A DNA stretch of 64,000 nt from Amphiscolops sp. MND2022. Lineage: Eukaryota. The position numbers were made by a program, and so were the translations under genes. Of the stretch, positions 10,738-64,000 are shown piece by piece. The notes under the pieces were generated by a model, which was not told the origin of the DNA, made no database searches, and saw only the letters and a list, made by a program, of their open reading frames with translations. Each line of letters begins with the position of its first letter. Positions within the stretch are counted from its first letter, which is position 1. Location: assembly GCA_964187785.1 (NCBI GenBank), contig OZ076409.1, positions 45,696,001-45,760,000 on the forward strand, in the 5' to 3' direction.

Positions 10738-10739
10738 AA

Positions 10740-26673: not shown

Positions 26674-26934
26674 CCGCTAAGATTGAACGTCTCAGAATTT
26701 CATCGTGAGCAGTAATTTAACATTTAGAAAACCCAATTTCACGACCAAAATAATTGAAATAGACGTTTCTCCAATTTTGACCATACTTTGGCCCCATTCG
26801 GATACTTTTTGCACTGGAATTTTTTAGAAGTTTCTCAAAAACCATCCCTGAGCATAAGTAAAAGACTTAGCGCTTTTTGAGCCGTAAGATGGCCGCCAAC
26901 TTTAGACGGTGCCATTTTGTTGAAGCAAACTCAC

Positions 26935-32884: not shown

Positions 32885-33071
32885 AAACTAATTTCATTTA
32901 TCATAATCTTATCATTTTCACAACAAAACTGTAAGACTCGGCAATCCTCCTTCGAGGGCACTTTGCGCCGATACAGGTCAACTTTTGTCAAAACTCACCG
33001 CTGATAATGGGACGTCGCTCCGCTTCCTTTCAACATTTAGGTCACCATATGTAGACGAAGTTGATCTATTC

Positions 33072-33871: not shown

Positions 33872-34954
33872 TTTTTTAGTCGGCGCATTTTAGTAGCAAA
33901 TGAGCCCGACTATTACAGTGGGTAGTTTTTTTAGACACGAAAGGTCCACTTTTTTGTTCATTTGTTCAACAACCTCAAACCTCAACAACTTCAAACCTCA
34001 ACAACTCCAACCTCAGAAGCGCGTCCAAAACGAAAAGAAAAAACAAAACAGACGTCCACAACCTCGAAAACACACTAAAGATCCCACCTTAGCCCCACTT
34101 TTTTTCGGCACTATGCGACTTTTTTTTGAAGTTTTTTGGATTGCACCAGAGGGTCCCCCTTCATTTGTTTCGATATTTTGCAACACAATGGATGTCAAAA
34201 AATTGCAAAGGGTCCCCCCTTTTACATTTTTCGGCACTGTGACACTGTTCAAAAATCTCATTTTAAAAATTTTTTGGGAAATTTTTTCATGTCTCCAAAG
34301 GGTCCCCCCTTCAATTTTTTAAATTTTTTGCAACCAGCTGGAGTTTCACAAAGCCTGAAGGGTCCCCCTTTTAAATTTTGAGTCTTAGATATGGCGCCGA
34401 CTTTGGCCGTTCTCGGCTTGTTTTTAGTCGGCGCATTTTAGTAGAAAATGTGCCCGACTATTACAGTGGGTAGTTTTTTTTTAGACACGAAAGGTCCACT
34501 TTTCTGTTCATTTGTTCAACAACCTCAAACTTCAACAACTTCAAACCTCAACAACTCCAACCTCAGAAGCACGTCCAAAACGAAAAGAAAAAACAAAACA
34601 GACGTCCACAACCTCGAAAACACACCTTAGCCCCACTTTTTTTCAGCACTTTTTTGAAGTTTTTTGGATTGCACCAGAGGGTCCCCCCTTCATTTGTTTC
34701 AATATTTTGCAACACAATGGATGTCAAAAAATCGCAAAGGGTCCCCCCTTTTACATTTTTTGGCACTGTGACACTGTTCAAAAATTTCATAAAAAAAAAT
34801 TCTTGGGAAATTTTTTCATGTCTCCAAAGGGTCCCTCCTTCAATTTTTTTTCAAATTTTTTGCAACCAGCTGGAGTTTCACAAAGCCCGAAGGGTCCCCC
34901 TTTTAAATTTTGAGCCTTAGATATGGCGCCGACTTTGGCCGTTCTCGGCTTGTT
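33872..34954 (+). mobile_element. Two head-to-tail family B elements (junction 34420/34421)
   Basis: Each unit starts TTTTTAGTCGGCGC and ends GCGCCGACTTTGGCCGTTCTCGGCTTG. Confidence 0.85.
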
Positions 34955-37353: not shown

Positions 37354-37572
37354 ATCTTCTCTCTGATCAAAGAGACGATATAGAGTTTATATGAAAGTGG
37401 CACCGGATATTTTCCACCCTAATATTATTTTATTTTAGCAACATTATTTTTAGAGAACCATATCTTCTCTCTGATCAAAGAGACGATATAGAGTTTATAT
37501 GAAAATGGCACCGGGATATTTTCCATCCTAATATTATTTTATTTTAGCAACATTATTTTTAGAGAACCATAT
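37354..37572. repeat. Tandem duplication, 2 x ~108 bp
   Basis: ATCTTCTCTCTGATCAAAGAGACG...TTTAGAGAACCAT occurs twice back to back with few differences. Confidence 0.9.
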
Positions 37573-41950: not shown

Positions 41951-44900
41951 TGTGTTGACCCTAGTCCTGGGATAACTCGTTTATTTCAATTGGTCTAGAT
42001 GTAGATACCAGACTTTCTGGGTTGATTTCGTTCACTTCCGGAATCACAGTATCAGGCACTTTGCCCGACAGCGAGTCTATTTTTGAAGATAGATTTTCGA
42101 TCATTTTAAGGATTTCCCTCTGTCCCGTTTCAGGGTCTTTTATCCTCCTGCTAACAGATTTCTCAATATTCTCAGAGATCTCAGAGAAATCTCTGTCAGA
42201 GATACTCGGGACGTTCTGTTTTTAAACTTGTAGCTTCGGGTTCGCCTATCGAGCTTGTCAGAGAGTCTCTCCTAGCTTTCCTCCTAGATGTTCTTTCGGG
42301 CATTTTGAGTTCAGAATTCCAAAAATCTGGTCTTTTGGTCTAGAAATTTCTACGAAGTAGTGAAGAAGATGAAGATTCCCAAGTTTATTGATTATCAGAA
42401 CAGACAGTAAAAGTTTCGCAAAAATACAATTATCGACTGAAATTAATTTTAATTCACCAGATATCTATACCTTTTCGCTCGCGAGAGCGGGGGAAAATAT
42501 GCTCACCTTTCAGCCCGGCGTCCTTCCAAGGCAGGGAAACCGGAAGTTCAGTTCAGCTTTGTCGAACTCAGACTCTGTTTGTTTGTTCATGCTTCCCAAG
42601 GAAAGCACGCGTCCACTTCCTGTCTGAGTTGCGACTCCGCTTCCCTTCGCCTCCAAATACCACCTTTTCCAGACGCCGGAACTGAACTTGACAGTGAAAG
42701 TTTGGGAGTGAATCATCAAATTACAGCTGATGAAAGAAAATACAAATTGAGTGGAATAACACTAAAGATTTACAGAGGACAAAATGTCTCTTGATTTAAC
42801 TTTGTAACTCTACAAATACTGCACAAAATTATGATTTGCTTGGAAACAATGGAATTTTAGGGTATAAACAACGAAAATTACCGAGTGATCCAATCCTGGT
42901 CCCAGGCCAAGGGTCAGGCCATTCAACAATTAAACGTGGTTTACATGAGAAATAGCATTATAAAAAATAGGCCCCTCCGGGGCTCAGTACTATTTCTGCT
43001 TTATTCTTTATTTCTTGAAACAAAAAAATCATTAATAAATGAATCATATCTGGAATACCAATACACTCCTGTTTAATCATTACTTAGAGCACAATTAATC
43101 ACTGTACAAGTTTACACCGCCTTTAATTCTTCTCGGACTAAAGAAAATATAACTACTAAGCGTAGACGAGTTTCGCATCGCATTTGAATGCAGGCGAAGC
43201 TCTCAACGAACGAATAATTAACACTCATTCGCTTCATCTCAATAACTCGGGGCAACGAAAGCACAATTAGGAACATTTGCTCGCTTCATCTCAATGACGT
43301 CAGCATACGAATGAATAATTACCACTCGCTCGTTCCATCGCACTAGAATTGAATTGTCTTCGGCAGCTCTCTCGCTTACATTCACTACCGAACAAAACAT
43401 CTGAATTATTCAGATCGTCCGAAAAATTGTTCTGAAAAAAAGTACACGTTTCCAGATTTCAATAATATTCCTGCTAAAGCAGAAATATTAATTACATGCG
43501 ATCAACAATCGTCATTCGTTATCATGAGTATTAAGCTTCAGATTCATTAGGGAAAGAAGGATTATTAATAGCATCAACGTTCCCAATTTCTACAATGGAT
43601 TTTATTAAATTTTCATTCCAGGCCGCGTTCTGGGCCGCAGTAAATGACAGACTTTCTGGGTTGATTTCGTTCACTTCCGGAATCACAGTATCAGGCACTT
43701 TGCCCGACAGCGAGTCTATTTTTGAAGATAGATTTTCGATCATTTAAAGGATTTCCCTCTGTCCCGTTTCAGGGTCTTTTATCCTCCTGCTAACAGATTT
43801 CTCAATATTCTCAGAGATCTCAGAGAAATCTCTGTCAGAGATACTCGGGACGTTCTGTTTTTAAACTTGTAGCTTCGGGTTCGCCTATCGAGCTTGTCAG
43901 AGAGTCTCTCCTAGCTTTCCTCCTAGATGTTCTTTCGGGCATTTTGAGTTCAGAATTCCAAAAATCTGGTCTTTTGGTCTAGAAATTTCTACGAAGTAGT
44001 GAAGAAGATGAAGATTCCCAAGTTTATTGATTATCAGAACAGACAGTAAAAGTTTCGCAAAAATACAATTATCGACTGAAATTAATTTTAATTCACCAGA
44101 TATCTATACCTTTTCGCTCGCGAGAGCGGGGGAAAATATGCTCACCTTTCAGCCCGGCGTCCTTCCAAGGCAGGGAAACCGGAAGTTCAGTTCAGCTTTG
44201 TCGAACTCAGACTCTGTTTGTTTGTTCATGCTTCCCAAGGAAAGCACGCGTCCACTTCCTGTCTGAGTTGCGACTCCGCTTCCCTTCGCCTCCAAATACC
44301 ACTTTTTCCAGACGCCGGAACTGAACTTGACAGTGAAAGTTTGGGAGTGAATCATCAAATTACAGCTGATGAAAGAAAATACAAATTGAGTGGAATAACA
44401 CTAAAGATTTACAGAGGACAAAATGTCTCTTGATTTAACTTTGTAACTCTACAAATACTGCACAAAATTATGATTTGCTTGGAAACAATGGAATTTTAGG
44501 GTATAAACAACGAAAATTACCGAGTGATCCAATCCTGGTCCCAGGCCAAGGGTCAGGCCATTCAACAATTAAACGTGGTTTACATGAGAAATAGCATTAT
44601 AAAAAATAGGCCCCTCCGGGGCTCAGTACTATTTCTGCTTTATTCTTTATTTCTTGAAACAAAAAAATCATTAATAAATGAATCATATCTGGAATACCAA
44701 TACACTCCTGTTTAATCATTACTTAGAGCACAATTAATCACTGTACAAGTTTACACCGCCTTTAATTCTTCTCGGACTAAAGAAAATATAACTACTAAGC
44801 GTAGACGAGTTTCGCATCGCATTTGAATGCAGGCGAAGCTCTCAACGAACGAATAATTAACACTCATTCGCTTCATCTCAATAACTCGGGGCAACGAAAG

Positions 44901-47487
44901 CACAATTAGGAACATTTGCTCGCTTCATCTCAATGACGTCAGCATACGAATGGATAATTACCACTCGCTCGTTCCATCGCACTAGAATTGAATTGTCTTC
45001 GGCAGCTCTCTCGCTTACACTCACTGCCGAACAAAACATCTGAATTATTCAGATCGTCCGAAAAATTGTTCTGAAAAAAAGTACACGTTTCCAGATTTCA
45101 ATAATATTCCTGCTAAAGCAGAAATATTAATTACATGCGATCAACAATCGTCATTCGTTATCATGAGTATTAAGCTTCAGATTCATTAGGGAAAGAAGGA
45201 TTATTAATAGCATCAACGTTCCCAATTTCTACAATGGATTTTATTAAATTTTCATTCCAGGCCGCGTTCTGGGCCGCAGTAAATGACAGACTTTCTGGGT
45301 TGATTTCGTTCACTTCCGGAATCACAGTATCAGGCACTTTGCCCGACAGCGAGTCTATTTTTGAAGATAGATTTTCGATCATTTTAAGGATTTCCCTCTG
45401 TCCCGTTTCAGGGTCTTTTATCCTCCTGCTAACAGATTTCTCAATATTCTCAGAGATCTCAGAGAAATCTCTGTCAGAGATACTCGGGACGTTCTGTTTT
45501 TAAACTTGTAGCTTCGGGTTCGCCTATCGAGCTTGTCAGAGAGTCTCTTCTAGCTTTCCTCCTAGATGTTCTTTCGGGCATTTTGAGTTCAGAATTCCAA
45601 AAATCTGGTCTTTTGGTCTAGAAATTTCTACGAAGTAGTGAAGAAGATGAAGATTCCCAAGTTTATTGATTATCAGAACAGACAGTAAAAGTTTCGCAAA
45701 AATACAATTATCGACTGAAATTAATTTTAATTCACCAGATATCTATACCTTTTCGCTCGCGAGAGCGGGGAAAAATATGCTCACCTTTCAGCCCGGCGTC
45801 CTTCCAAGGCAGGGAAACCGGAAGTTCAGTTCAGCTTTGTCGAACTCAGACTCTGTTTGTTTGTTCATGCTTCCCAAGGAAAGCACGCGTCCACTTCCTG
45901 TCTGAGTTGCGACTCCGCTTCCCTTCGCCTCCAAATACCACTTTTTCCAGACGCCGGAACTGAACTTGACAGTGAAAGTTTGGGAGTGAATCATCAAATT
46001 ACAGCTGATGAAAGAAAATACAAATTGAGTGGAATAACACTAAAGATTTACAGAGGACAAAATGTCTCTTGATTTAACTTTGTAACTCTACAAATACTGC
46101 ACAAAATTATGATTTGCTTGGAAACAATGGAATTTTAGGGTATAAACAACTAAAATTACCGAGTGATCCAATCCTGGTCCCAGGCCAAGGGTCAGGCCAT
46201 TCAACAATTAAACGTGGTTTACATGAGAAATAGCATTATAAAAAATAGGCCCCTCCGGGGCTCAGTACTATTTCTGCTTTATTCTTTATTTTTTGAAACA
46301 AAAAAATCATTAATAAATGAATCATATCTGGAATACCAATACACTCCTGTTTAATCATTACTTAGAGCACAATTAATCACTGTACAAGTTTACACCGCCT
46401 TTAATTCTTCTCGGACTAAAGAAAATATAACTACTAAGCGTAGACGAGTTTCGCATCGCATTTGAATGCAGGCGAAGCTCTCAACGAACGAATAATTAAC
46501 ACTCATTCGCTTCATCTCAATAACTCGGGGCAACGAAAGCACAATTAGGAACATTTGCTCGCTTCATCTCAATGACGTCAGCATACGAATGGATAATTAC
46601 CACTCGCTCGTTCCATCGCACTAGAATTGAATTGTCTTCGGCAGCTCTCTCGCTTACACTCACTGCCGAACAAAACATCTGAATTATTCAGATCGTCCGA
46701 AAAATTGTTCTGAAAAAAAGTACACGTTTTCAGATTTCAATAATATTCCTGCTAAAGCAGAAATATTAATTACATGCGATCAACAATCGTCATTCGTTAT
46801 CATGAGTATTAAGCTTCAGATTCATTAGGGAAAGAAGGATTATTAATAGCATCAACGTTCCCAATTTCTACAATGGATTTTATTAAATTTTCATTCCAGG
46901 CCGCGTTCTGGGCCGCAGTAAATGACATTTCAAAAATCACCACGAATATTTAGTTAGTAAAACAATTACATGTATAGCATCGTTTCAATCGTTTTTCTAA
47001 GGCATTAACAGGTTTACATGTACTCAACGATAACGCGTTTATTATTAGAGAAAAGCGCACAGCACATTTTATTCTGAGGCCGCTTGCCAGGCCGGCGTCT
47101 CGCTGCTCAAATTTGAGACCAGGCTGCCAGGCCGCGGTTCTGCCATTTAATTTCTCAGGCCGCTTGCTAGGCCGTGTGATTCGATTGTTTTCACTTATAT
47201 AGCACTGTTTTAATACTATTAACGGCAAAATACCTTCATATTGGTTGGTACACTATATGTATGTATGTATATAATTCTATATAATTATATGAATATTGGT
47301 ATGTAATTCCTCTTGATTATAATATTATTTTAGCGCCGTTATTTCAGATTATTCAACATGAAATAGTAACATATATCACAAAACGGTTGCATGTTGATTT
47401 TGTTTTCTCTCCTTCATTTCCCATTTTGTTCTTCGTAGACTGGGTTCTTTGCGTTGCAATACTCACAGCTTATCTGGGGCTGTGACA
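41951..47487 (-). mobile_element. Probable solo LTR (TGT...ACA, 5-bp TSD) enlarged by nested insertion and triplication
   Basis: Begins TGTGTTGACCC, ends GGGGCTGTGACA; GGGGA at 41946-41950 and 47488-47492. Confidence 0.65.
42008..46927. repeat. Tandem triplication, 3 x 1639 bp, nearly identical; each unit holds a family A element (42962-43490, 44601-45129, 46240-46768)
   Basis: ORF track repeats at 42388/44027/45666 (period 1639); only scattered single-base differences. Confidence 0.97.
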
Positions 47488-47673: not shown

Positions 47674-48344
47674 TGAATTTTGCGACTTGCGGGCTGAAAC
47701 GAGAGTTGTCGCGCGGAAAAAAAGCACCCGCACTTTCTAAAAACACTTGCTTATCGCAAGTGTAAAAAGTTCAAGAGAATGAAATACCTTAAAGCTTACT
47801 TCTTGTTTACAGAACTATTTTCGAGCAAAATCACGCAAACTGTTTCAACCAGAGCTGTCAAGGTTTTGTGATCAACAGAAATCAAATTACTTTGCAACAG
47901 AAGCAGTTGAAGGAAAACAAGAGGCGGCCTCCTCAGGTTCACAATGAATCATTGACATACACTCAAGCTGTTTTTGAGAAAATTAGACTGAAAAATCTAA
48001 CAATGTGGAAAGGGGACGGATCCTTTTCTCAACTGAAAACATCATAAAACCAAAAAAATTAGCTTTCGAGAAACAAAACATTTTTCGAAGTTGCGCCAAA
48101 AGTAGTCACAGGGAAGTAATTGGAGTGAGCATTAACTGCATACAAAAATCTAATTTAGCTCAGCGACAATATCAGCTGTAGGCGCCAATACACTGTCCAA
48201 GGAAAATTTGAGAGCTTTGAATATAAATTTGAGAGGCTACGTGATTGACAGCAAAGTGACAATATGAAGCAAAATGACAGCAAATAATCTGCCAACACCC
48301 CCCGCCAAAAAAAAACGATTTAAAACTTTGGTTAGATTATCCAC

Positions 48345-48531
48345 CTAGGTCTTCTCTGGCCATGGTGTGCAATCTGTTGGCTGTCATGACGAAGAAGTTG
48401 GCTTGATTATCCAGAAATTCAGTCACGTGAGCAGACCGGTCAACTTTGGCTGCACCACTCACCCATTTGGCCAAAGCAAACACACGCACAAACATTTGCC
48501 TCGTTTTGATGCACCATTTACACAGCTCAAC
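48345..48531 (-). CDS. MED14: MED14 coding exon 2 (absent from the ORF track)
   Basis: Manual translation TRQMFVRVFALAKW...FLDNQANFFVMTANRL resembles TRQLFVRLLALVKW...FLDQQAILFVDTADRL. Confidence 0.95.
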
Positions 48532-49479
48532 CTAAACAAAAAGAATGATTGAATTAAAAAATTGACATTTCATTGGGAAGTATCTAGGACCGAATGTAGA
48601 CAACGTTAGCCAGTGATTTCTCCCAATAGATTGTTGTTGATAGTTCGGGGTTGTGAGCAGGGTTGGCAGAACGTGTATTTTCGAAAATAACAAACAGTTC
48701 TTCAACGTTTTTTACTTCTAGCTGTCACCGCAACTTGCCTTAAGAAAATCAGAGTCTCAAAAACATGCATTCCAAGCCAGGTGGAGAGGAAGTCGCGTTC
48801 CCTTCAAGCCTCTGGGTACAAATCAGCAAAACTTTTTCCGGTGAAAAAATAAATAACATGGTAAAAGCGTGCCAAAATTGGTTAAAACGTGCCATTATTA
48901 GATGGTAAAAACGTGCCATTATTAGATTTTTCAATAATAGATCGACTTGTCTGAACTATTCAAGGCTAATAGCATCAAATTTGTTTGGAATTTTTTAAAT
49001 GACAAAGCTGAACTACATGTATTACCTTCAACAATAAGAAATACGTATTACGAGTACAGACTTGTTTCATTAAAAACAATAGTGAACTTGAAGATAAACA
49101 AATATTGTTGACAATGGATTAAGCAGTCCGCGCGTTCAAAGTATTCCTTGAATTCTTCAGCATTAAAAAGTTTCAAAGGAAATGTTTAAAGATTTTGACG
49201 GATCAAATACCAAATCAAAACTTCAACGTATTTTTTATCAGTGACTAGGAAAGAATCAACAAAACGAGAACGTCTTAAAACGGCACCCCGCTTACGGGTC
49301 AAAAAGCGCAAACTCTTGGGAAGCCAGCGACTGAAAAGTGCTAAGTGGCAGGACTTTGGCGTGAATGTTTGATCAAAAAGTTTACAATTCAGTATGATAT
49401 CTTTTATTTGACAAAAAACTCGCCAATGTAGAAATCGGTCTTTTTTTGAAGAGAACGCTGACTAAAACTATATATGTAC

Positions 49480-49728
49480 CTTCCTTTCCACATCTGGTTT
49501 CCTCGGGAGAAGTTCAGCTAAAACAATAAGTTCGTGATACGCAGTTTGGACTGCTCTTTCGATTATGACGGATAATTTGATAGCATCTTGTTGCTGGTGA
49601 GTGGGCACAATTTGATTGGCTGCTGTCGACATCAATGACCCCTTCTGACCATCAAGCATGGGCGATGGCATTGAAGCAGGTGCAATATTATTAGGAGTAC
49701 TACTGATAGGGACCATCATAGATGCCAT
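49480..49728 (-). CDS. MED14: MED14 (Mediator of RNA polymerase II transcription subunit 14) coding exon 1
   Basis: AYHELIVLAELLPRKPDVERK resembles AYSELMVLTDLLPRKSDVERK; ATG 6 nt after a TTTCAG acceptor; AAG/GTac donor. Confidence 0.93.
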
Positions 49729-49875
49729 TACTATCTGAAAGCAATAAATATTTTCCAATATTTTATCCCGCAAATAAAACAACCATTCAGCACACACTTT
49801 ATATAGTTTCAACGGATAATTTTTTTGAATGATTTCATCTCACCGGAATATTCGCACATTCCGTCTTCTATATGG

Positions 49876-50477
49876 AAAATAGGCGCCTCCGGGGCACACA
49901 TTTCTGCTTTAATCTTTCATTATTAATAGAATCATATCTGGAATACCAATACTCTCCTGTTTAATCATTATTTAGCGCACAATTAGGCACTGTTACATTT
50001 TATACCGCCTTGAAATCTGTTACATGTAAATATCATCAAGTATTTCTTTCTACAATCAATTTGACTAGAATCAATTCAGTCTTTTAGTAGTAATAGTAGT
50101 AAATCTCGGACTAAAGCAAATATAACTAAGCCTAGACGAAGTTTCACATTCGCAACTGAATGCAGGCGAAGCTCTCCGCGAAAGTATAATCAACACTCAT
50201 TCGCTTCATCTCAATAACTCGGCGCAACGAAAGCACAATTACGAACATTCGCTCGCTTCATCTCCATGACGTCAGCTTACGAATGCATAATTACCACTCG
50301 CTCGTTCCATCGCACGAGAATTGAATTGTCGTCGGCAGCTAGAAAAATTTAATTCTTACGCTTATAGTCACTGCCGAACAAAACATCTGAATTATTCAAT
50401 ATCCTGCCAAGAATTGTACTGAAAAAAGTAGACATTTTGAGATTTCAATGATGTTCCTGCTAAAGCAGAAATAATAA
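49876..50477 (-). mobile_element. Helentron-like family A element just upstream of MED14
   Basis: ATTTCTGCTTTA / TAAAGCAGAAAT subTIRs, GC hairpin, shared core. Confidence 0.8.
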
Positions 50478-50705
50478 AAAGGAAACCTAATCCTTCAACG
50501 GCTTTTTTACACCGAATTTTGTCATGTTCCATAATATGTTCTACTAAAAAATCAAGTTTGCAGCACTTGTATTTATCAAAATAATCGGGCTTTTTTGTAG
50601 AAAAGTTTATAGAAAAAAGTGCCACGAAACATTATGTCAATATAAAGAAGAGCTTCGATATTCACGCTGACAAAAATTGTGGGGTCGAGACAAAAACCAT
50701 AGTTG

Positions 50706-51369
50706 AAACGAGCCAAGTCGCCGCCCCGCTCAAGTTTCGAAAAACCCAAGTTTCTTAAATATGCAAAGGTCACTATTGTTGAAATTTTATCAATTTCTCA
50801 ATGCCGAAAAATACCCTAAGGGATACGTATAAGACTCTCAGAAACCATTTTCTCAAACTGGAAACACAAAAACTTTTTGAAAAAAATCTGATTTTTTTAT
50901 TTTGGATAGTCTCATAGTCCCGAAAAGATTTTTTCAGAGTCACCCAGTGTCAAAAAATACCTCATGTTATTTCCACAATTATTGAGAAAACTCTCATGCG
51001 TTTCACAGTACCAAAAAATTCCTCTCAGCAAACCTCAAAAACAAAAATTTGGGAAAACGTTTTCTCACAAAATATTTTAACTAACTCTTCAATGAGTCGC
51101 ATAGTGCCGAAAAATTCTAAAGGAGGGACCTTTTTGTGTCCTCCCTACATTTGCAAACAAACAAACTTTTGGTTTAGTGGGAAACTCGAACCCACGTACT
51201 CCTGTTTCTCAGACATTGCGTTAACCACTAGGCCAAGTGGCAATGAGAAGTTTGCCAAATCGAATAACTCGTAGAACTGTTTTGACTGGTTCAAGTGTAT
51301 AGAAAAAAAAACTGAAGAAAAGCTATGACTATAGTCGACTCTTTTCTAAAGAAAAGCTCCGACTAAAAA
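50706..51369 (-). mobile_element. Family B-related element with tRNA-derived cassette
   Basis: AGTCGACTCTTTTC...GAAAAGCTCCGACTAAAAA terminus; shared internal subrepeats. Confidence 0.65.
51170..51241 (-). pseudogene. tRNA-derived sequence with A and B boxes
   Basis: TGGCCTAGTGG A box, CTGAGAA loop, GGTTCGAGTTT B box; ~72 nt. Confidence 0.65.
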
Positions 51370-51788
51370 TAGGCGTGGCACGGTAATATTTCTGCTTTAT
51401 TTAGGATACAACAATCATTAGCTTCAAAGTGCTATAATAAAATCATACAATGTATTGTAATTCCTAAACCTCATTTACATTCAAAAGTTTGCTCTCTAAA
51501 GTAAGTAACCATTTCATCAATTAGCGAATATTTTCCGTTGCCACATTTCCGAACTCTACGTTTGGTTCATTTTTGACGAAAAAAAATTGTTTTCCAATTG
51601 AGCATTCAAACTAGAAACTCGTACAAAAACTTGTACTGAACAAATAAGATTTGTCACATAAATCATTCAGCATGCCCAGAAGTGTCAACCTTTTGCCTCT
51701 ACACCAGCGTGGTATAATTTTGAAGGAAACTGTTTCCGAATATTTTTTGTGAGTTAGAAAAACGTACGAAACAGAACGTTTGCATTGG

Positions 51789-52914
51789 AAACAAGACAGG
51801 AACGTCTCAAGTCGGCGCTATATCTAAGGCTCAAAAAGCGCAAAACATTTTATTTGGAAAAAAAATTTCTTTCGGAAAATGTCGCACAGTGCCGAAAAAT
51901 GTAAAAGGGGGACCCTTTTTGATTTATAAACACGCATTCTGTAGCAAAATAACAAAAAACTCAAAGGGGGACCCTTTGGAGACATTAAAAAAATTTCGAA
52001 AAAAAAGTCACACAGTGCGGAAAAAAATCTAAAGGGAGGACCCCTCAGTCCCGTCCGGGCTTGTAGGTAACGTTTAAAAAGTAAAAAACCAAAGGGGGAT
52101 CCTTTGGAATAATTTACATGCGTTTCCCTGGTATTTAGTTTCCTTTAGTTGAACGTTAACGTTCGTCGCTTCGAGTCTGTCTTAAATAAAAACAAGCCGG
52201 GACCGGCCCAAGTCGGCGCCATATCCAAGGCTCAAAAATAGCAAAAAGACTTCCAAGTGTCAAGTATTCGTTTACAGTAGTCGAAACTCGAAAATTTTTC
52301 GAAAATTTTTTTTTTGAAAAAATTACATACTAAAAAAATGGACCGAGTGGCGCGCCGGGGCTCGCTACCGCGAGCCCCTGGCGCGCTAACGTCTCACAAT
52401 GCCGAAAAACTGAAAAGGGGGACCCTTTGAGGTTTTTCAACATCCATTCTGTCGCAAAACATGAAAAAATTGAAGAAAAAATTTTTTTTATTTTCGGGAG
52501 AAAATCTCACAATGCCGAAAAAAACTGAAAGGAGGAACCCTTTGGGATTTTCCAACATCCATTCTGTCGCAAAACATCAAAAAAAATGCAGGGGGGACCC
52601 TTTGCGGAAAAAAAATTTCGAAAAAAAAATCCGAAAAAAATGTCTCGCAGTGCCGAAAAAAAATGAAAGGTATGATATGTTACGCGGAAAAACAGGTAAA
52701 TTCATTTTGGTCCAGTTCGCTAGGCCAAATGGTGCTATTTGACACCATAATATTTTGTAGAACTTTTAAGAACTATTTTGGTCAGTTCGTGTGGATTGAA
52801 AAAAAAAAAAGAAAAGTCACTATAATAGTCGCGTTTCACTTCATGAAGCGCCGACTAAAAAACGAGTGACTGTAATAGGCGGGCTCTTTTCTTAGGAAAA
52901 GCGCCGACTAAAAA
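51789..52914 (-). mobile_element. Family B element with a second family B copy (52188-52861) nested inside
   Basis: Two 3' ends (51789, 52188) and two 5' ends (52861, 52914) in nested order. Confidence 0.75.
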
Positions 52915-53207
52915 CCAAGTAACCATAATTCTTACTAAGTCTTTATATAGTTAAAGAACCGCTGTTTAAAATAACTTCATATCCCACGTGCAACAAATAT
53001 GTGATTCAAAATACTAAAAGCAGTTTCCAAAATCTATTCGTGATTTCCAAATTGTCATTCGATTTGAAATCAACAAATTTCATTAAAAACCGCGATGCTT
53101 CAAACCAATAAAATGCTATTACAATATCAAAAACTGATCGCGATAAAGATTTCTTTCTCCAGTCAAACAAAAACAATCAAAAATAGTTATCATATTATTG
53201 CAAAGAA

Positions 53208-53777
53208 TCAATCAGCTTTATCATGTAATAATAGTTTACTGTTGTTTCTCACAATTTCATCGTCCGACTGACTAGCTTCTATAATTTCGACATTTTGTAA
53301 AACTGTTATCGGAAACTTATTCAAATGGTCGCCAGTTGCACCTCTGAAAGAAACGGTGTTGGCGGATATCTCATCAGCTGGAGATACAGTCGAGGAGGAA
53401 GGATCCTTTGTCTCAGAATTTGCAGCAGCGTTCAAAATAAGACAGGCGTCTTTCTCAGTTTGGATGTGGTATGCAGACAAATCGACAGTACTATTTTCTG
53501 TGAACAAAGGAGCTTGCCCAGCTTCTGATTGGTTGAGTTTCTCCAACGATGCACTTATGATAGGTTTCTCGGGAACAGTGGAAGGAGGCACTGCATTGGA
53601 TATGTCCATAGATAGAGAAGTTCTTGAGATTCTGAAATACTGTTCTGATTTCGACATTGACTGATCTTGTAGAGAGAGTTTAGGTTGGCCTGATTTGTCA
53701 GCCGTAGTCGGACTGTGGTTGGATGAATTAGCTGATTTTGATAGATTCGACTGAACGTCGCAATGCTCTTTGACAAT
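53208..53777 (-). CDS. TAPT1: TAPT1 last exon (Ser-rich tail)
   Basis: gtttAG acceptor, phase 0; IVKEH follows QSCK (cf. KSCQYVKE); open to the stop at 53208. Confidence 0.75.
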   Translation of the reverse strand: MVKEHCDVQSNLSKSANSSNHSPTTADKSGQPKLSLQDQSMSKSEQYFRISRTSLSMDISNAVPPSTVPEKPIISASLEKLNQSEAGQAPLFTENSTVDLSAYHIQTEKDACLILNAAANSETKDPSSSTVSPADEISANTVSFRGATGDHLNKFPITVLQNVEIIEASQSDDEIVRNNSKLLLHDKAD

Positions 53778-54755
53778 CTAAACACGAACTATATTCTTGT
53801 GAATCAGCCAAGGAGACAAGTAAAATGAAAATCAAGAGCGTCTCCGATAAAGGGACTACTATGCATTCACAGAATAAGGATTCGATTTCAGGGCTGTCAA
53901 AAACACGGCGTGAATTGCCGCGCAAAATAGCGCATGTTTCAATGTTTTTTTAGCGTGTAAACCAGGGAGCTTGATGCATTTTTCAAAATTAAGTCGCTCC
54001 TATTTGTCATATAATTCTAATATTATTGCCATAAGAAGGGCGCTTTACAAAAAGGCTCTAAAAGGAGAAGGTAGCATTGATGTTTCAGGAGGATCGAAAA
54101 AAACATCAATTCTTTCACACCATATTCCAAATACAAAAATTCGTGATTAAGTCTTAAAGTGAAACATCGCTAATGGTTTTAGTGGGTAATTTAACGAGTA
54201 AAAAGCATTTAATTTACTGCGAAAAACGGTACATTCTTCGGTGGATTTTCCACAGCCGACTTCGATAAACGCAACAGAAGTCTTAAATTTTCCTCAAGTA
54301 CATCTTCAGTGAGTTAAACTCAAAAGCCGCAATTACCTTTTACAATCATTGATTTGAAACTACATGTAACGCCAAATACGAAATACTCTTTCGTATAACT
54401 TAGAATAACTTACAGTAGTTGGCTTCGGTGTCCGGACATCACGTCCAAGCACATTGCGCCCAAAAGAAGACCGAGTCATACAACATTTTTCAAAAATTGG
54501 GCGTCATGTCCTAGAACTGTTGACTGCATTAAAGAAAAATTAAGTAATGTATTAAATGGAACCAAGGATAAGTTGCCAGAAACCGTTCCGTTTCGATGAA
54601 CGGAGAGCGATATCATGGAAGGTCGCGTCGGGGGAGAATGAACAAAGTCCAGCACGAGGGGTAGATTTTCAACAAATGAATATGGGTTCAACTTTATCGC
54701 GAGTGTTCAATGGATACGGCATCCTAAATCTATTGGTGACGCACTGGACACTAAC

Positions 54756-55006
54756 CTTACAAGATTGCTTCAAGATGTACATGCTAGTCAGTGTTTTGAT
54801 GATGAAGCTCACTGGAATGATGACCGTCAAACTGGCGAAAGATGACCAAAAGTTGGAGAACAGCGTCTGATCGAAAGTTTTGAAGAGAACACAGATCAAT
54901 GGAATCGGGTTCTGACCCATCTTGCGTGCAACTACGTCACAGTGCTCTGATACCGCCTCTTTCCGTTTACTCATTACCATGTCAATGGCTAAACTCAGTC
55001 GATACT
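54756..55006 (-). CDS. TAPT1: TAPT1 penultimate exon
   Basis: EYRLSLAIDMV...DVVARKMGQNPIPL resembles YRASLAFDLV...DSVARRMGFIPLPL. Confidence 0.92.
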
Positions 55007-55383
55007 CTACAATAAACAAACCAGTGCATTAACTTTGCTTGAGTTTGAGGAACGGCAAAAAACCGAGTGAGAGAAATTTGCAAAAGACATTTATGCATTA
55101 ATTATAACTCTGGACTATTTGACAAGACAATGATACCAAAACGCGAAAATCGGTGTCACTCAACTGATTTTAAACATAACTACCTTTCAAAAATCTTGAC
55201 TGACCGCCAGAAACGTTTGAAAAAAAAGCACAAGAAAAACGGTTGTAAAGTTTTGACTTTGATGTTGAAAAAAAAAACAAAAAAACTGGTCGATATCTAA
55301 TTAATACTCATTAAAAAAATTCGGTCGTAAATATTTCAGTCAACAAGCGTCTCAAAAACGTTGAGCACAACCGAGCAGACCTC

Positions 55384-56004
55384 TTTTTAGTCGGCGCTTT
55401 TCGAAGAAAAACGCAGACTATAGTAGTGACTTCTTTTTTTTAAGACCAACGAACTGACAGATTTTATAAAGAGTTATAAATAGCGGAGCTGACTTCACTG
55501 CACTAACAGTAACTGCAACGCTAGCCATCACTGCTGGCACTTGGCATAGAGGTTAATTAAGCTTTTTGACTCGTCTATGGGGACCGTGCGAAGCGAAACT
55601 ATGTTGGTCTGCAACCAATTAAGCTTTTTGAGGTCTGCCAAGCAGAAGGACGTGGGTTCGAGTCCCGTCCTTGATCAAATTTTTTATGCAGGTTTTTTTC
55701 GGCTTTGTGAGACTTTTTTCGCAAATTTTTTTAATGTCTCCAAAGGGTCCACACTTCATTTTTTTTCTATTTTGCATAAGAATGGATGTTCAAAACCTCC
55801 CAAAGGGCCCCTTTTACAATTTTTCGGCACTATGCGACTTACCGAAGACCAAAAAATTTCGAAAAAAAAATTTAAAAAAAATTCGGATTTTTTTAAATTT
55901 TTCCTCACGCGGGTACTGTAAAAGAGAATACTTGACACTTTGAAGTCCTTTTGCTATTTTTGAGCCTTAGATATGGCGCCGACTTGGGCCGTTCCCGGCT
56001 TGTT
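55384..56004 (+). mobile_element. Family B element with tRNA-derived cassette (A box 55542-55552, B box 55655-55665)
   Basis: TTTTTAGTCGGCGC start; GCGCCGACTT-GGGCCG-TTCC-CGGCTT end; TGGCATAGAGG and GGTTCGAGTCC. Confidence 0.8.
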
Positions 56005-56550
56005 GTTGGAAGTAGCGGCAAATCCACTCTAGAACAATGGAAAACTGGTGTTTTCTGACCTCTCCGATATTCAATTCCGAAATATTGAACGATGCTTAGA
56101 TCCGATCCCCCACCCTTCTTGCCGGCAAGGCACAGAAAACTGAAAAACGCTAAATCTGAATGATTGATGTCGCATTTTAAGTCATATCAAAAAACTCTGC
56201 CCGGTTCAATTTGAATTTATACGAGCTAAATTTCAAGCCCAACATTTGACTGGCAAGATTTTTTAAAAATGCTCTACAAACGAAAATTTAACGTTATATC
56301 CGAAGTAATTATATATACATTAATATCAGAAAACGCAATTAGAAAAGACCAATTTGGAAACATTTGAAAATTTCGGTCCCACGCGGGATTCGATCCCACG
56401 TCTACATAAGAATAGCTTGAACTAAAAACAAAGTCAAACTAGAAAACAACGCCGCTCTGTAAAGCTTTGCTCTCAGGCGCTAATTTTTTGACTGGGTGAG
56501 CACTTGGCTATCGCAAGCTTGATGAGGTAGAGAACGGATGAAATATTAAC

Positions 56551-56876
56551 CAGAATATACATCAGCAGGTATCTCGTTGAACTTGGCAATGAAACAATGC
56601 TTGACCCAGTCCACAATAACTTCGGCCACGAGAACAAGCAACAATTCAGGCAACAGCTGACCAAAGTACACGACATCCCAGTTCAGTTCACGCAAGTTTC
56701 TCACAGATACCACCAGAAGCAGAACTAGCAAATGAAGCCTTTCTCTGACGTCAGCACATGTCAGTTGATATAAATTGTTTTTGTCAAACTTCTTGAACAC
56801 AGTTCCTTTCAATTCGGCAAAATTGTTGGACATCATGATGATCAAAAGTGACTTATTGTGGGAATTAAACGCCACA
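56551..56876 (-). CDS. TAPT1: TAPT1 (transmembrane anterior posterior transformation 1, DUF747/Emp65 family) internal exon; upstream exons lie outside the window
   Basis: VAFNSHNKSLLIIMMSNNFAELKGTVFKKFDKNNLYQLTCADVRER...EVIVDWVKHCFIAKFNEI, the family's conserved core. Confidence 0.96.
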
Positions 56877-57009
56877 CTGAAACAAAATTTAGTATTTGTC
56901 ATGTGAGATACAGTTTCAGTGAAACATGATCTGAGCTGCGTTGAAATAATAAATTCAATCATATATTCAAAAACAATACATTTTTGGAAATGATATTGCA
57001 TATCGCTGG

Positions 57010-57251
57010 TAAGTTTGACATCAATGAACGTACGTCAAATCTTAATCAAAAACTACCACTTGAACTCATTCTGAATTTGAAAATTAGCTCTAAACTGACG
57101 AACTATTTATTCAATGATTTACCACTTTGAGAAAACTTGATGAAATTGAACTATATTGAATAAAGATTACATTGAATAGAAAAAACCGCTCTAAACGACC
57201 CAAGAGCAAGTGAAAGATAATCTAAAGGCAAAGACGCTTAAAGATTTTATA
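57010..57251 (+). repeat. 5' LTR of the second BEL/Pao element
   Basis: Homologous to 18731-19080 with an internal deletion; immediately followed by a PBS. Confidence 0.8.
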
Positions 57252-57260: not shown

Positions 57261-60200
57261 CTAAAGAATCGACTCGCTTTTAAATGGGATCAACCGAGCC
57301 AACTATGAACAACGGCTAACTCAATTTGCAATCGCATAAAGTATTAGGAATCGTTTTGCTTCTTTGGGGGTTAAGATTAGAATATCAAATCAGTATCTAC
57401 TAGTTTCAAATTAAGATAATCTACCCAACGATTATTCTCAGGGTTTGATTCTTATACTGCCTTTTGATAATCCGACACCTTCAACCTTCCAATAGCCGAC
57501 AAATTGCTGCCGAAAGTTTCAAATTGGAGTAATCTCTAGCTAGATTCATCTCAGGATTTGTCTATTCCTTCAATTGGCCATTTACTCTTCCAAATTGAGC
57601 ATCAACTTCCAGCTCTCGTTCTAGTAGTTGTCTGCAATCTCCTAATTTGCGATCTACCATACCTTCTAAAGGTAACCAGCAAAAAAACTTCGCTCCCACA
57701 GCGTAATTTCCATATCGCCAAAGCTACTCGTCTCTTCAGCAGAATATACAAAGCCCTTGATGAAGAAAATGTCGGTTTTGATATCAGCTCCTTGAACGAC
57801 GAACTGAAGAAAATCCTCATAGATGTCGAAAACAAATTTCACCAAAATCCATAATGAATACGATGACCTGACAGACAAATTCTCCAGAATGCAGAAATCG
57901 ACAGCTGCCAACCGGCCGATCCAAACCATGGGAGTCTACAACGTGAACAACTGTCAACAAATTGTCAATAGAACAATCGACGACTCCTCAGATGAACAGC
58001 ACGTACATTGCAGTAATTCTCCCTTTCTCATCATCTTACTCGACCCAAATTGAAAATTGAACCGTACGATGGAGATCCCACGAAATGGAATTTGTGGTAT
58101 GGTCTTTTTGCAACCGCCATACACAACCAACCCATTTCTTTAGCAGAGAAAATGACATCTCCAGACTCTTACCACCGGAATAGCAAATCAGGCTGTTTCA
58201 GGCTTTTCCTGCAAGAGCCAAATGTACGACGCAGCACTTGCAGAGCTACAACGCCGGTTCGGAAGACCTGAAATATTTGTGAATGAATTTCTTCACCTCC
58301 TCCAGAATTTTCGTCAACCATCGATACAGCAACGTCACACTTTCACGGAGTTTTCAACTTTCATCAACAATCTCGTGGAAACTTTCCAGTCGCTAGGTTT
58401 CACCAATGACCTGAATTCGACACTTTACGTACAATTTGCCGTTAACAAGCTTCGGCCTACTTAGAGATTACAGTGGACAACAGTACGCTGTGAGTAACAA
58501 TATAGAACAACCAAGCCTCATCCATTTCAACATTTGGATCAGACAATTCGCACTTGCTTGTGATAACATGCCTTTCAATCTCGACGATCACCAGACTTCC
58601 AGCTCAATTTCGAAGAACCAGCTGTCAAGAGTAACACCAGTCAAACAACATCGACCTCTCTGCCCATTCGACAATTTGGATCATCACCCAGCGCATTGCT
58701 CCACCTACAAGAAGGCAAGCCTTGAACAGAGACGCCGAATGGTTTTAGACAAAAAACTTTGTCTCAATTATTTAGGACAACATTTGAAGACTGATTGTAA
58801 ATCACAACACCCTTGCCGTCCGTGCAGCCGCAAGCATCAGTCATCTTTACACGACGACAACTAGAATAAACCTCGACAAACACCTGAACAAACGAAGGAC
58901 AACATAAATTCCAGACTGACAACAAAAACATTCGCTAGTAAGACGATCCCCAATCAAAGTACTCAAGTTGCAGATAGCTCCTCAACCGACAAAACAACCA
59001 GCCGCAAAAGCAAGCATCGATGCCCTGTTGATGGTAGTACCTGTAACATTGGAAAGTGACAATACCTTCGTTTACACATACGCTTTCCTTGACACCGGCA
59101 GTACATGTAGCAATCTAGTCTCCAAAATTGCAAACAGTTTGAATTGCACTGTCAACGAACCACCCGTGAAACTCGAGATTGGAGGTTTTTAGAACCGAAA
59201 ACCTTGACAACAAAAAGAGTGTCTCTTGGATTTCATCCTTTCGGTAACATCGCCGAATCCTTCAGCCTCAGTCAAATTTTTGTCTTACCATCCTTCAACC
59301 TCGCCGATGTCGATACCCATTCTCTCAACGCCCAGTCACTGGGATTATTATCCGTTAAATCTCAACAGAATTAAGTTCCCTTAGCTACTGCATAACCAGA
59401 TTGGACTTATCTTGGGACAAGATAACTTTGATCTTATAACAGCTCGAACAGTTTTCAAGGGAGATTCAAACGCCGCTCGCGCTGTTCTAACCGACATAGG
59501 TTAGACTATTGGCGGTCCCCATGATAGCCGGTACCAACAATCCACCTTTTACGCCACAACGTTCCAATGTCTTAAACTTTCAACGAGGACCACGACGATG
59601 AAGATTTGTACAAACTTGTCGCGTCGTTTCGGAGAATGGAAAGCTTCGGGATCAATCCCGAAGTTACCATGTCCAAAGATGAAAGACATGCCCCGAAAAC
59701 TCTTCGCGACACCATTCGTTTCGTTGACAACCGATACGAAGTCGGATTGTTTTGGAAGCCGAACGCTGAACTCCCAAACAAAGCTGAAGGATTTGTCTAT
59801 TCCTTCAATTGGCCATTTACTCTTCCAAATTGAGCATCAACTTCCAGCTCTCGTTCTAGTAGTTGTCTGCAATCTCCTAATTTGCGATCTACCATACCTT
59901 CTAAAGGTAACCAGCAAAAAAACTTCGCTCCCACAGCGTAATTTCCATATCGCCAAAGCTACTCGTCTCTTCAGCAGAATATACAAAGCCCTTGATGAAG
60001 AAAATGTCGGTTTTGATATCAGCTCCTTGAACGACGAACTGAAGAAAATCCTCACAGATGTCGAAAACCAATTTCACCAAAATCCATAATGAATACGATG
60101 ACCTGACAGACAAATTCTCCAGAATGCAGAAATCGACAGCTGCCAACCGGCCGATCCAAACCATGGGAGTCTACAACGTGAACAACTGTCAACAAATTGT

Positions 60201-63200
60201 CAATAGAACAATCGACGACTCCTCAGATGAACAGCACGTACATTGCAGTAATTCTCCCTTTCTCATCATCTTACTCGACCCAAATTGAAAATTGAACCGT
60301 ACGATGGAGATCCCACGAAATGGAATTTGTGGTATGGTCTTTTTGCAACCGCCATACACAACCAACCCATTTCTTTAGCAGAGAAAATGACATCTCCAGA
60401 CTCTTACCACCGGAATAGCAAATCAGGCTGTTTCAGGCTTTTCCTGCAAGAGCCAAATGTACGACGCAGCACTTGCAGAGCTACAACGCCGGTTCGGAAG
60501 ACCTGAAATATTTGTGAATGAATTTCTTCACCTCCTCCAGAATTTTCGTCAACCATCGATACAGCAACGTCACACTTTCACGGAGTTTTCAACTTTCATC
60601 AACAATCTCGTGGAAACTTTCCAGTCGCTAGGTTTCACCAATGACCTGAATTCGACACTTTACGTACAATTTGCCGTTAACAAGCTTCGGCCTACTTAGA
60701 GATTACAGTGGACAACAGTACGCTGTGAGTAACAATATAGAACAACCAAGCCTCATCCATTTCAACATTTGGATCAGACAATTCGCACTTGCTTGTGATA
60801 ACATGCCTTTCAATCTCGACGATCACCAGACTTCCACCTCAATTTCGAAGAACCAGCTGTCAAGAGTAACACCAGTCAAACAACATCGACCTCTCTGCCC
60901 ATTCGACAATTTGGATCATCACCCAGCGCATTGCTCCACCTACAAGAAGGCAAGCCTTGAACAGAGACGCCGAATGGTTTTAGACAAAAAACTTTCTCTA
61001 AATTATTTAGGACAACATTTGAAGACTGATTGTAAATCACAACACCCTTGCCGTTCGTGCAGCCGCAAGCATCAGTCATCTTTACACGACGACAACTAGA
61101 ATAAACCTCGACAAACACCTGAACAAACGAAGGACAACATAAATTCCAGACTGACAACAAAAACATTCGCTAGTAAGACGATCCCCAATCAAAGTACTCA
61201 AGTTGCAGATAGCTCCTCAACCGACAAAACAACCAGCCGCAAAAGCAAGCATCGATGCCCTGTTGATGGTAGTACCTGTAACATTGGAAAGTGACAATAC
61301 CTTCGTTTACACATACGCTTTCCTTGACACCGGCAGTACATGTAGCAATCTAGTCTCCAAAATTGCAAACAGTTTGAATTGCACTGTCAACGAACCACCC
61401 GTGAAACTCGAGATTGGAGGTTTTTAGAACCGAAAACCTTGACAACAAAAAGAGTGTCTCTTGGATTTCATCCTTTCGGTAACATCGCCGAATCCTTCAG
61501 CCTCAGTCAAATTTTTGTCTTACCATCCTTCAACCTCGCCGATGTCGATACCCATTCTCTCAACGCCCAGTCACTGGGATTATTATCCGTTAAATCTCAA
61601 CAGAATTAAGTTCCCTTAGCTACTGCATAACCAGATTGGACTTATCTTGGGACAAGATAACTTTGATCTTATAACAGCTCGAACAGTTTTCAAGGGAGAT
61701 TCAAACGCCGCTCGCGCTGTTCTAACCGACATAGGTTAGACTATTGGCGGTCCCCATGATAGCCGGTACCAACAATCCACCTTTTACGCCACAACGTTCC
61801 AATGTCTTAAACTTTCAACGAGGACCACGACGATGAAGATTTGTACAAACTTGTCGCGTCGTTTCGGAGAATGGAAAGCTTCGGGATCAATCCCGAAGTT
61901 ACCATGTCCAAAGATGAAAGACATGCCCCGAAAACTCTTCGCGACACCATTCGTTTCGTTGACAACCGATACGAAGTCGGATTGTTTTGGAAGCCGAACG
62001 CTGAACTCCCAAACAATTTCGCTGCCGCCCTTCAACAATACAAAAGATCGGAACAACGACTCATGCACAATCCTGTCACACATGATCTACATTCCGCCAC
62101 CATCGAGAAAGATCTTCGCTGTGGATATATCCGCCGAACTCCCCACAATGAAGTTCCATCAACTGGATGGCTGCTACCAGAACACGGAGTCCTTCACCCA
62201 AACAAACCCGGGAAACTCCGACGAGTTTCTAACGCCCGAGCTAAATACAAAGTAGTTTGTCTCAACGACATGCTTTTAACTGGACCCGACTTACTCGCCA
62301 ACCTCCTTGGAATCATTCTGCGATTTCGCGAAAAAATACCCATTTTCCGCTGACATTGAAGCAATGTACATGCAGGTATCGGTGCGCCCCGCAGACAGGA
62401 AATTCCTACGATTTCTCTGGGGCGAAACTGATTTTTTTTCGAATAACTTCATTTCGTCTTTGGAGCAAAATGCTCTCCAACTTGCGCTATTTTTGCTCTT
62501 CAAACCTGTGCCGACGATCATTTTGACAAATATCCGCACGTTAAACGCATCGTTCGAGACAATTTTCACATGGATGATCTTTTCTTTTCTACCGACACGA
62601 TTCAAGAAGCTATCAGTATCATCCACTCGCCCTTTCACGAGGAGGTTTTAATCTGACAAAAAGGATTAGCAACTCGCCCGAAATTTTGAACGACGTCCCG
62701 CCCGAACATCGCGCTTTGTCCCCCGATGAAATCCGTCGCGCGCCAAAACCCCAAAAAGTCCTCGGAGTGGATTGCAAACTCTCCACAGACGAACTGGAAT
62801 TTTCGCCTACCAAGCTAATTAGCCAGTTTCAAGCCAAACCCACACAACGATCCCTTCTCCGCGCAACTTCCTCCGTGTTTGACCCTTTAGGAATCGCCGC
62901 ACCCGTTACAATCCGTTTTCGCATAATCCAACAAACGATCTGGCGTAAAGGTTTAAAATGGGACGACGAAATAACCCCCGCCGTTTCGCCCGAATTTTTC
63001 GACACAATCGCTGAATTGCAAGAACTGTCTGCCGTCGCTATACCGAGACGATTGTTTCCCGACGAATATCACGATATCACGCTCCATGTGTTCACTGACG
63101 CGTCCTATTCCGCCACTCGCCGCTATCGCATACTTCGTTTATCGCCAATCGCCAACATCGCCGCGCTAAGTTTGTTTCGTACTAGGCAAAGCCCGAGTTG

Positions 63201-64000
63201 CGCCTTTGCAGCAACAAACCATCACCAAACTCGAACTACCAGAAGCCCTTTTGGGTTCGCGTTTCGCTAACTTCCATTCAACGCGATCAGCGTCTAACAA
63301 TCAACGCGATCCACATTTGGACAGACAGCACAACTGTCTTACAATGGATCTATGGATCTCATCAACGTCTACAAGTTTTTGTTGCCAATAGGGTAGCGGA
63401 AAAACTCGAGAACACGCAAGCACATCATTGGAATCATTGTCCTGGTGAATGGAACCCCGCTGATGATGGTACACGCGGAATACCTTTTCGCGATTTTCAC
63501 TACAGTACTCGTTGGTTCCAAGGACCTGAGTTCTTGAAAAAATCAGCATCAGACTGGCCACTCAACCCTGCTCACCCGCAAGCATGTGCAAAAGTGAGCG
63601 CGTCCTTCTCATCAATTCGCACAAGAAGCCACAGACGTAGCCACAGATGACGCCGCAAACGTCGCAACAGATGATGCCGCAGCCGTAGCCACAGAAGAAA
63701 AAACAGCAGCAGAAGTAGCCACAGAAGAAGAAACAGCAGCAGAAGTAGCCACAAGAAGAAACAGAAGTAGCCAAGAGCGATGAAGGAAAACCCGGTGCCA
63801 GAAAGGCCACAGTAGTCGACACTGTGTCACTGTTGCCCAAAACTACTGCACGTATTACTGTCCCTGCTCACTATGACGCCAACACAACGAAGGAGACTCA
63901 TTTTGGTCAATTGCCATCATCAATTATACTTCTTTACCAGGACATCTCTTCGAGATCGTTTTTCCTCGTGAAAAAAATCAGTTCGAGTCACAGCTTTTGT
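57261..64000 (+). mobile_element. Degenerate BEL/Pao retrotransposon, same family as 13230-19080, antisense in a TAPT1 intron; runs off the window end
   Basis: Gag, knuckles, AFLDTGS, KPGKLRRV, CLNDMLLTGPDLL, ADIEAMYMQV, VFDPLG, VFTDAS, WTDST, NPADDGTRG. Confidence 0.95.
57553..62015. repeat. Tandem duplication, period 2235 bp, inside the BEL/Pao element
   Basis: ORFs repeat at 57823/60058 and 58050/60285; junction filler at 59781-59787. Confidence 0.96.

Follow-up and report, generated by a model that had tools for sequence, protein, structure and literature searches.

The window, a stretch of 64 kb of acoel DNA that was analysed as a whole, contains on its minus strand a gene whose open reading frame starts at 49728. 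Profile matches to Pfam Med14 on three exons and to RM6_Med14 on one identify this gene as MED14, and MED14 of Convolutriloba macropyga, the only homologue returned for the core exon (one of 197 candidates, 67% identity), is collinear with it over 49722–21495; this match places the host among the acoels. The tests described here draw on the window itself, this single homologue and published work. The same assignment, made by an earlier sequence-only reading, is thus upheld. MED14 is an essential gene. Its ATG is the first in its frame, and the C. macropyga protein carries an N-terminal extension of similar length; because its N-terminal 45 residues show no significant similarity to those of MED14 here (p=0.15), it is the similar position alone that suggests an old ATG. 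A homologue search with exon 1 returned none among 34 candidates, which is weak evidence. Elsewhere on the minus strand, a stop-free frame of 461 codons at 6769–8151 encodes a caspase domain (Peptidase_C14, E 1e-18), and the last mapped MED14 intron holds a hAT-like transposase remnant at 22902–24524, with a DUF659 match below the cut-off. The coding features next to the site of interest are the following.

49480–49728, minus strand: first coding exon of MED14 (83 codons), with the donor of intron 1 at 49479; from Pfam and homologue comparison
53208–57034, minus strand: 3' exons of TAPT1 (DUF747), the gene upstream on the same strand, with its stop ~3.5 kb before the MED14 ATG; from a profile match

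Upstream of the MED14 ATG lies a copy of a repeat family, termed family A, which is represented in the window by six full copies (four independent insertions, as three copies belong to one tandem triplication) and one 3' fragment. The five independent insertions and fragments (10223, 32343, 42964–46775, 49876 and 51365) all lie on the minus strand, for which chance gives 1 in 16. The copies were delimited by sequence comparison.

49876–50484, minus strand: family A copy beside MED14, of HINE/DINE-1 type, with 5' subTIR at 50461–50472, 3' subTIR at 49900–49911, hairpin at 49883–49897 and a private insert of ~88 nt at 50013–50106
10223–10745, minus strand: family A copy at 10 kb, with 3' subTIR at 10251–10262 and intact hairpin at 10230–10242
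32343–32892, minus strand: independent family A copy in MED14 intron 7, with an unrelated 3' flank; used as outgroup
42964–46775, minus strand: three family A copies (42964–43497, 44603–45136 and 46242–46775) in a 1639-nt tandem triplication in MED14 intron 2, counted as one independent insertion
51365–51399, minus strand: isolated, degenerate family A 3' end with subTIR, collapsed hairpin and T-run

The anatomy of family A points to a non-autonomous Helentron of the DINE-1/HINE type. A perfect 12-nt inverted pair (50461–50472 and 49900–49911), found also in the three copies at 43–46 kb, constitutes the subTIRs; the motif has 11 matches against 1.0 expected, and the 5' subTIR is degenerate at 10 and 32 kb. 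A partial inverted repeat at the 5' end forms a stem of 7–12 bp in all three copies folded (z of -3.0 for the 46-kb copy, and of -0.7 and -1.4 for the remaining two), and the 3' subTIR is followed by a stem-loop with a G+C stem of 4–5 bp in four of four full copies folded. These 3' stems are shorter than the 7–11-nt stems described for DINE-1 (PMC2374699), and fall within the 5–10-bp palindromes given for mite HINEs in the available text (PMC4067079). The copies further contain central tandem repeats of 51–52 nt, no stop-free frame above 113 codons and hence no coding capacity, and T-runs at every 3' end and at three of the four independent 5' ends; no target duplication was seen at the insertions. 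A canonical Helitron (HLE1; 5' TC, 3' hairpin with CTRR, A-T target), as defined in the accessible part of PMC11417382, was rejected, the ends being T-runs with subTIRs. The rolling-circle character proposed by the sequence-only reading therefore stands in its Helentron-derivative form, on the evidence of the subTIRs, 3' hairpin, central repeats and T-rich ends.

As far as the available parts of the sources describe them (PMC2374699, PMC4067079, PMC11417382), DINE-1/DNAREP1 elements and HINEs of the HLE2 group share with family A subTIRs of 12–13 nt, a partial inverted repeat by the 5' subTIR, central tandem repeats, a stem-loop directly behind the 3' subTIR, terminal T-runs on either side and a non-coding body, and in both no target duplication has been seen. 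Family A differs from them in its acoel host, in its unrelated primary sequence and in having no GTCY microsatellite, and the window yielded neither an autonomous partner nor an empty site. Specifically, no autonomous RepHel partner was apparent within the window, and no paralogous empty site for the 10-kb insertion was found there, the neighbouring repeat of a second family aligning to 26330–26511 only up to 9983. A limited literature search, judged by title and start of abstract, returned no HINE family from an acoel. The family A pattern matched nine loci in metagenome contigs, with matches of 19–23 nt only that were judged to be chance. Two private inserts, at 50013–50106 (~88 nt, flanked by 6-nt direct repeats) and 32380–32475 (~77 nt), have no source in the window and look like further filler DNA.

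Several other repeats occupy the window. Tandem duplications are found at 42001–46927 (1639 nt, three units, 99.3–99.6% identical), 57553–62016 (2229 nt, two units, 99.7%), 33873–34954 (~550 nt, two units, 92%) and 37354–37572 (109 nt, two units, 97%), and reflect recent duplication or an under-collapsed assembly. The array at 42001–46927, in MED14 intron 2, carries a family A copy together with a remnant of a coiled-coil-like open reading frame; its origin as a rolling-circle product was rejected, as the unit starts ~150 nt outside the 5' end of the element. A second and more abundant repeat family (9815–9983, 20682–21270, 26330–26680, 30042–30528, 33873–34954, 51789–52917 and 55384–56007) has a 9-nt inverted motif at its ends (17 matches) and is probably another HINE-type family. 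The 10-kb family A locus and the 51.4-kb fragment both lie near copies of it. At 13297–18435 and 57837–63948 are two decayed copies of an LTR element, 85–95% identical, which from motifs in the translations we take to be Bel/Pao-like; the stretch 1–1654 is presumably a Gypsy-like remnant.

The sequence between the family A copy and the MED14 ATG occurs a second time in the window. A BLAST search of the window against itself matched 10078–10369 to 49730–50018 with 93% identity, and alignment of 49730–49875 with 10078–10222 (146 and 145 nt) gave 142 matches, three substitutions and one one-base indel, with differences at 49826, 49814, 49790 and 49749 on the MED14 side. The near-identity claimed earlier for these two stretches is confirmed by both methods. 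The two copies lie 39.7 kb apart on the same strand, the 10-kb site being ~11 kb past the last MED14 exon found. They are the only two in the 64-kb window, where no third was detected at word size 7; the segment pattern had no match in viral and prokaryote contigs, and an Rfam scan of 48000–54000 had none. The features that define the arrangement are given below.

49730–49875, minus strand: shared segment, 146 nt; inferred native 5' flank of MED14 (outron or 5' UTR intron, possibly core promoter) and inferred donor
10078–10222, minus strand: copy of the segment, 145 nt, between two element termini; inferred recipient
49730–49734, minus strand: ATAGT, a 5-nt microhomology between the bases before the MED14 ATG and those before the hairpin at 10 kb, where the shared sequence ends
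10063–10079, minus strand: second terminus, a duplicate of the element end without 2 nt before and 5 nt within the hairpin, without subTIR, and ending in a T-run

At 10 kb the order is element body, intact terminus, segment, ATAGT, second terminus and unique flank. The segment was said to adjoin the 3' hairpin of a family A element at both sites; it does adjoin the element end, at the terminal T-run, 7 nt past the hairpin and not at the hairpin itself. The second degenerate hairpin terminus reported at 10 kb is likewise real, in that its alignment score is reached, among 10,662 windows, only there and at the six full family A termini; its 3' hairpin arm is gone and it has no fold, which refines its description. 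The duplicated terminus flanks the segment at 10 kb only, with the microhomology at the junction. The four positions after the second terminus (10059–10062) and after ATAGT (49726–49729) match at three, which is probably chance.

On the MED14 side the shared sequence stops 1 nt before the ATG. It includes, as claimed by the sequence-only reading and borne out by the minus-strand positions, the motif TTTCAG at 49740–49735, 6 nt before the ATG at 49728–49726, together with five of the six intervening nucleotides. Splice motifs were scored with an acceptor matrix built from 15 inferred acceptors, 11 from MED14 introns by spliced comparison with the homologue and four from TAPT1 picked by frame. 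Three motifs are predicted.

49735–49740, minus strand: TTTCAG, acceptor-like, with 6 nt between it and the ATG; at 3.98 bits among the highest-scoring 1.6% of AGs in the window
49837–49843, minus strand: donor-like GT in the segment, which with the acceptor would frame a 109-nt intron; from its matrix score
49797–49805, minus strand: TATA-box match in the segment, in conflict with the 109-nt intron in the same transcript; 0.037 expected per 145 nt

The AG at 49735 exceeds the leave-one-out median of 3.19 bits and ranks above most of the ~6,900 other AGs in the window. An equally strong AG lies within 15 nt of 31 of 2,025 ATG triplets; seven other AGs reach at least 4 bits in 49729–53200, two of them in the element's own 5' end, and the acceptor motif alone is thus not rare. 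The donor-like GT at 49843 scores 4.13 bits against a leave-one-out median of 2.53 for 13 inferred donors (top 0.8% of GTs), is the best donor score between 49736 and 53200, and has an expectation of 0.046 in 110 nt. With the 109-nt intron, an upstream ATG at 49859 would open an overlapping out-of-frame frame of 16 codons, and the TATA match at 49805 suggests a third option, an unspliced or short-outron start. The motifs were found after several looks, and either the donor-like GT or the TATA match is probably a chance occurrence. Branch-point-like matches in the segment are weak. The ideas of Inr and branch-point consensus used here are general knowledge. The four differences between the segment copies leave the acceptor-like and donor-like sites untouched. 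We consider it likely that the AG at 49735 functions as a native 3' splice site, serving either a short 5' UTR intron or spliced-leader trans-splicing, a process carried over here from what is described for a relative or a possible host species. At 50280 a private change gives rise to a GTAAG, which scores below 2.5 bits and was rejected as a donor. The 5' end of family A has a strong acceptor-like site of its own at 50457–50460 on the minus strand (6.3 and 4.75 bits), by which family A copies in sense introns could be exonised or trans-spliced.

The segment copies are far more alike than the element bodies beside them. The bodies at 10 kb and at MED14 differ in 45 of 512 columns and the segments in three of 145 (Fisher p=0.0036), and any window of 145 columns in the body has at least six differences; once the variable first 120 columns are left out, the difference is less marked (p=0.034). 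Of the 45 body differences, 23 are private to the MED14 copy, 11 are private to the 10-kb copy and 11 are unpolarised, a borderline asymmetry (p=0.058), and no polarity can be assigned to the three segment substitutions. In a tree of family A from which two of the three near-identical tandem copies were left out, the terminal branches measure 0.034 for the 10-kb copy and 0.070 for the MED14 copy, which are grouped as sisters with 69% bootstrap. Seven sites support this grouping, against five and one for the others, and the two bodies have a 3' deletion in common; the five sites that group the 10-kb copy with the 32-kb copy form mosaic patterns in its 5' part. The 10-kb copy lacks the private changes of the MED14 copy up to the last 9 nt of the element. 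Taken together, the divergences would make the segment copy the youngest event (0.021 in total), preceded by the insertion at 10 kb, with the MED14 insertion the oldest, an order for which constraint is unneeded. The element beside MED14 has changed more than the 10-kb body, and nothing in its sequence suggests that the element itself is now functional.

Joint copying of body and segment followed by neutral drift predicts 13–15 substitutions in the segment, and three are seen (p=0.0013 and 0.0002); if the MED14 segment were fully constrained, 4.9 would be expected (p=0.28). Both a neutral exapted composite and a simple read-through are disfavoured by this deficit, unless the MED14 segment is almost fully constrained. 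In the first of these, one of the two origins offered by the sequence-only reading, a composite of body, segment and second terminus would have been made elsewhere and inserted before MED14, and deletion of the second terminus and the native leader would have left the element's AG as the acceptor. A Helentron-derived composite would then have replaced the MED14 leader, supplying the donor-like site, the acceptor and perhaps the start-codon bases. The end of the shared sequence 1 nt before the ATG, where selection would halt such a deletion, speaks for it, as does the 9-nt stretch ending in the MED14 ATG, which exactly matches the pre-hairpin bases of the 32-kb copy. Apart from the substitution deficit, it is opposed by the lack of a hairpin remnant in the first MED14 codons, where the score is reached by 34% of windows and such a remnant was rejected. 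The segment is carried by two of the four independent full family A copies in the window; three other independent copies are without it. It has no structure beyond that of shuffled sequences (z -0.3 to -1.2) and no second element end, a folded element of its own was rejected, and it also carries a donor-like site at intron spacing. The account takes three steps, among them a deletion at an essential gene that leaves the animal viable, and it calls for coincidences as well: the composite has to be made elsewhere, and the deletion must have one endpoint no more than 5 nt from the AG and the other at the ATG. Two narrow literature searches for an earlier case of an outron or acceptor exapted from such an element returned one paper and none. 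Given the excess of expected over observed substitutions and the extra deletion at an essential gene, exaptation of the acceptor is disfavoured, and we regard it as very improbable.

The second origin proposed earlier was read-through transduction, in which the transposase would have started at the 5' end of the MED14-side copy, run past the hairpin and on through 145 nt of native flank, returned by slippage at ATAGT and stopped at the re-copied hairpin. The whole unit would have integrated in a T-run at a distance of 40 kb, and strong purifying selection at MED14 would explain why the segment has diverged so little. The shared sequence begins exactly at the element 5' end and T-runs frame the 10-kb unit, the sister grouping of the bodies (by sites, bootstrap and common 3' deletion) agrees with it, and under full constraint the three substitutions do not depart from expectation. 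In the parts of the reports that are available, Helraiser is shown to bypass its hairpin (PMC4778049), and the same has been proposed for DINE-1 (PMC4067079). The account nevertheless requires 145 non-coding bases to be almost wholly constrained, predicts that body and flank have diverged equally where 45/512 and 3/145 are observed (p=0.004; 0.034 without the first 120 columns), predicts equal terminal branches where 0.034 and 0.070 are measured, and gives no reason for the second terminus. The likeness to Helraiser lies in the capture of the hairpin-side flank and the precise 5' end. Helraiser, the one reconstructed Helitron tested in this way, is, however, an HLE1 element whose read-through ends are cryptic downstream sites and not a duplicated terminus, and in the available text it shows no local hopping, its 701 re-transpositions being not clustered near donors (PMC4778049). 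Helentrons may differ from Helraiser. The direction of the earlier proposal, with MED14 flank copied outwards, is retained; plain read-through fits the body and segment divergences and the branch lengths worse than a repair-type templated insertion does, and appears unlikely.

Two other accounts were weighed. An older joint duplication of element and flank, by either route, could have been followed by gene conversion of the segment only, or conversion could have run inward from 10 kb to the MED14 leader. The sister grouping of the bodies is compatible with this, and the mosaic sites shared with the 32-kb copy suggest exchange among copies; the tract would, however, need an endpoint no more than 9 nt from the element end, and conversion in the inward direction accounts neither for the second terminus nor for the fact that it coincides with the end of the tract. 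Conversion is accordingly judged quite improbable. Alternatively, reads of another MED14 haplotype might have been joined into the 10-kb locus via the repeat. Alleles may differ by as much as the 2% seen here, the window has three near-identical tandem duplications, and one acoel assembly has been described as under-collapsed (PMC9911081). Wrongly joined reads would not, however, produce a junction with microhomology and a terminus that has two deletions of its own, followed by unique flank, and such an artefact seems highly unlikely. Capture of an outron ending at the AG from an RNA template was also rejected, since it requires a chance match between the exon and the 5 nt that follow.

With moderate confidence, we favour the explanation that the native 5' flank of MED14 was copied recently into the resident 10-kb element by homology-primed gap-filling; the splice signal of the gene was then probably not acquired from the transposon. 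A non-autonomous Helentron of family A would first have inserted into a T-run ~150 nt upstream of the ATG, where it may have been tolerated because the splice signals lie downstream of the site. At 10 kb, a younger member of this subfamily would later have inserted. A break or stalled fork at the 3' end of that copy would then have led to invasion of the 91%-identical copy beside MED14, with synthesis extending ~145 nt into the MED14 flank and returning to the home template at ATAGT before the hairpin. Re-copying of the terminus with two small slips would yield the observed element, flank and second terminus. A transposase nick at the element end could have begun the repair. The 10-kb locus is taken as the recipient because the duplicated end around the insert marks it as such; this copy is inert, with no gene downstream.

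The gap-filling explanation leaves the position of the junction unexplained, its location 1 nt from the ATG being a 5–10% coincidence. ATAGT is not singled out as a return point, as the first 300 nt of the flank offer 18 microhomologies of at least 5 nt at which a return would have retained the hairpin. The 9-nt match of the MED14 ATG region to the 32-kb copy can be read as extra microhomology or as a sign of element origin.

The proposed mechanism is a known, ordinary kind of repeat-driven duplication. In the available text of the studies concerned, most captures present in single copy in animal DNA transposons are reported to stem from gap-filling, with a bias to cis sequence and with microhomology (PMC8277862), a filler-DNA model is given for insect Helitrons (PMC6544945), and DINE-1 copies are placed at duplication breakpoints in Drosophila (PMC2211543, PMC1904467). 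Single-copy Pack-TIRs and Helitron filler DNA, as portrayed there, resemble the present case in that nearby cis sequence is found in a resident copy, with microhomology at the junction and a single derived copy. They differ in that the donor here is flanked by the same element, so one junction lies in long homology, and in that the insert, which is not internal to the element, is placed at its 3' end and comes with a doubled terminus. In the Drosophila DNAREP1 duplications, which include the repeated first exon of hydra, gene 5' sequence and an adjacent DINE-1-type element are likewise duplicated, the repeat is common to parental and new breakpoints, and, in the portions of the reports available, recombination and transposition are left unresolved there too. 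Those copies include coding exons, some of them expressed, whereas the MED14 copy stops before the ATG.

If the exaptation account were true, a transposon would have rebuilt the leader of an essential gene, and an acoel housekeeping gene present in single copy would owe its trans-splice or 5' UTR acceptor to that transposon. On the best reading, two copies of a Helentron derivative bridged the repair-driven copying of a gene 5' flank, and the doubled terminus left by repair copying would mimic rolling-circle read-through. This calls for caution with counts of 'captured' flanks or exapted splice sites that are based on shared sequence alone. The copy also delimits 145 nt, pressed up against repeats, that may make up the complete functional leader of a housekeeping gene in an acoel.
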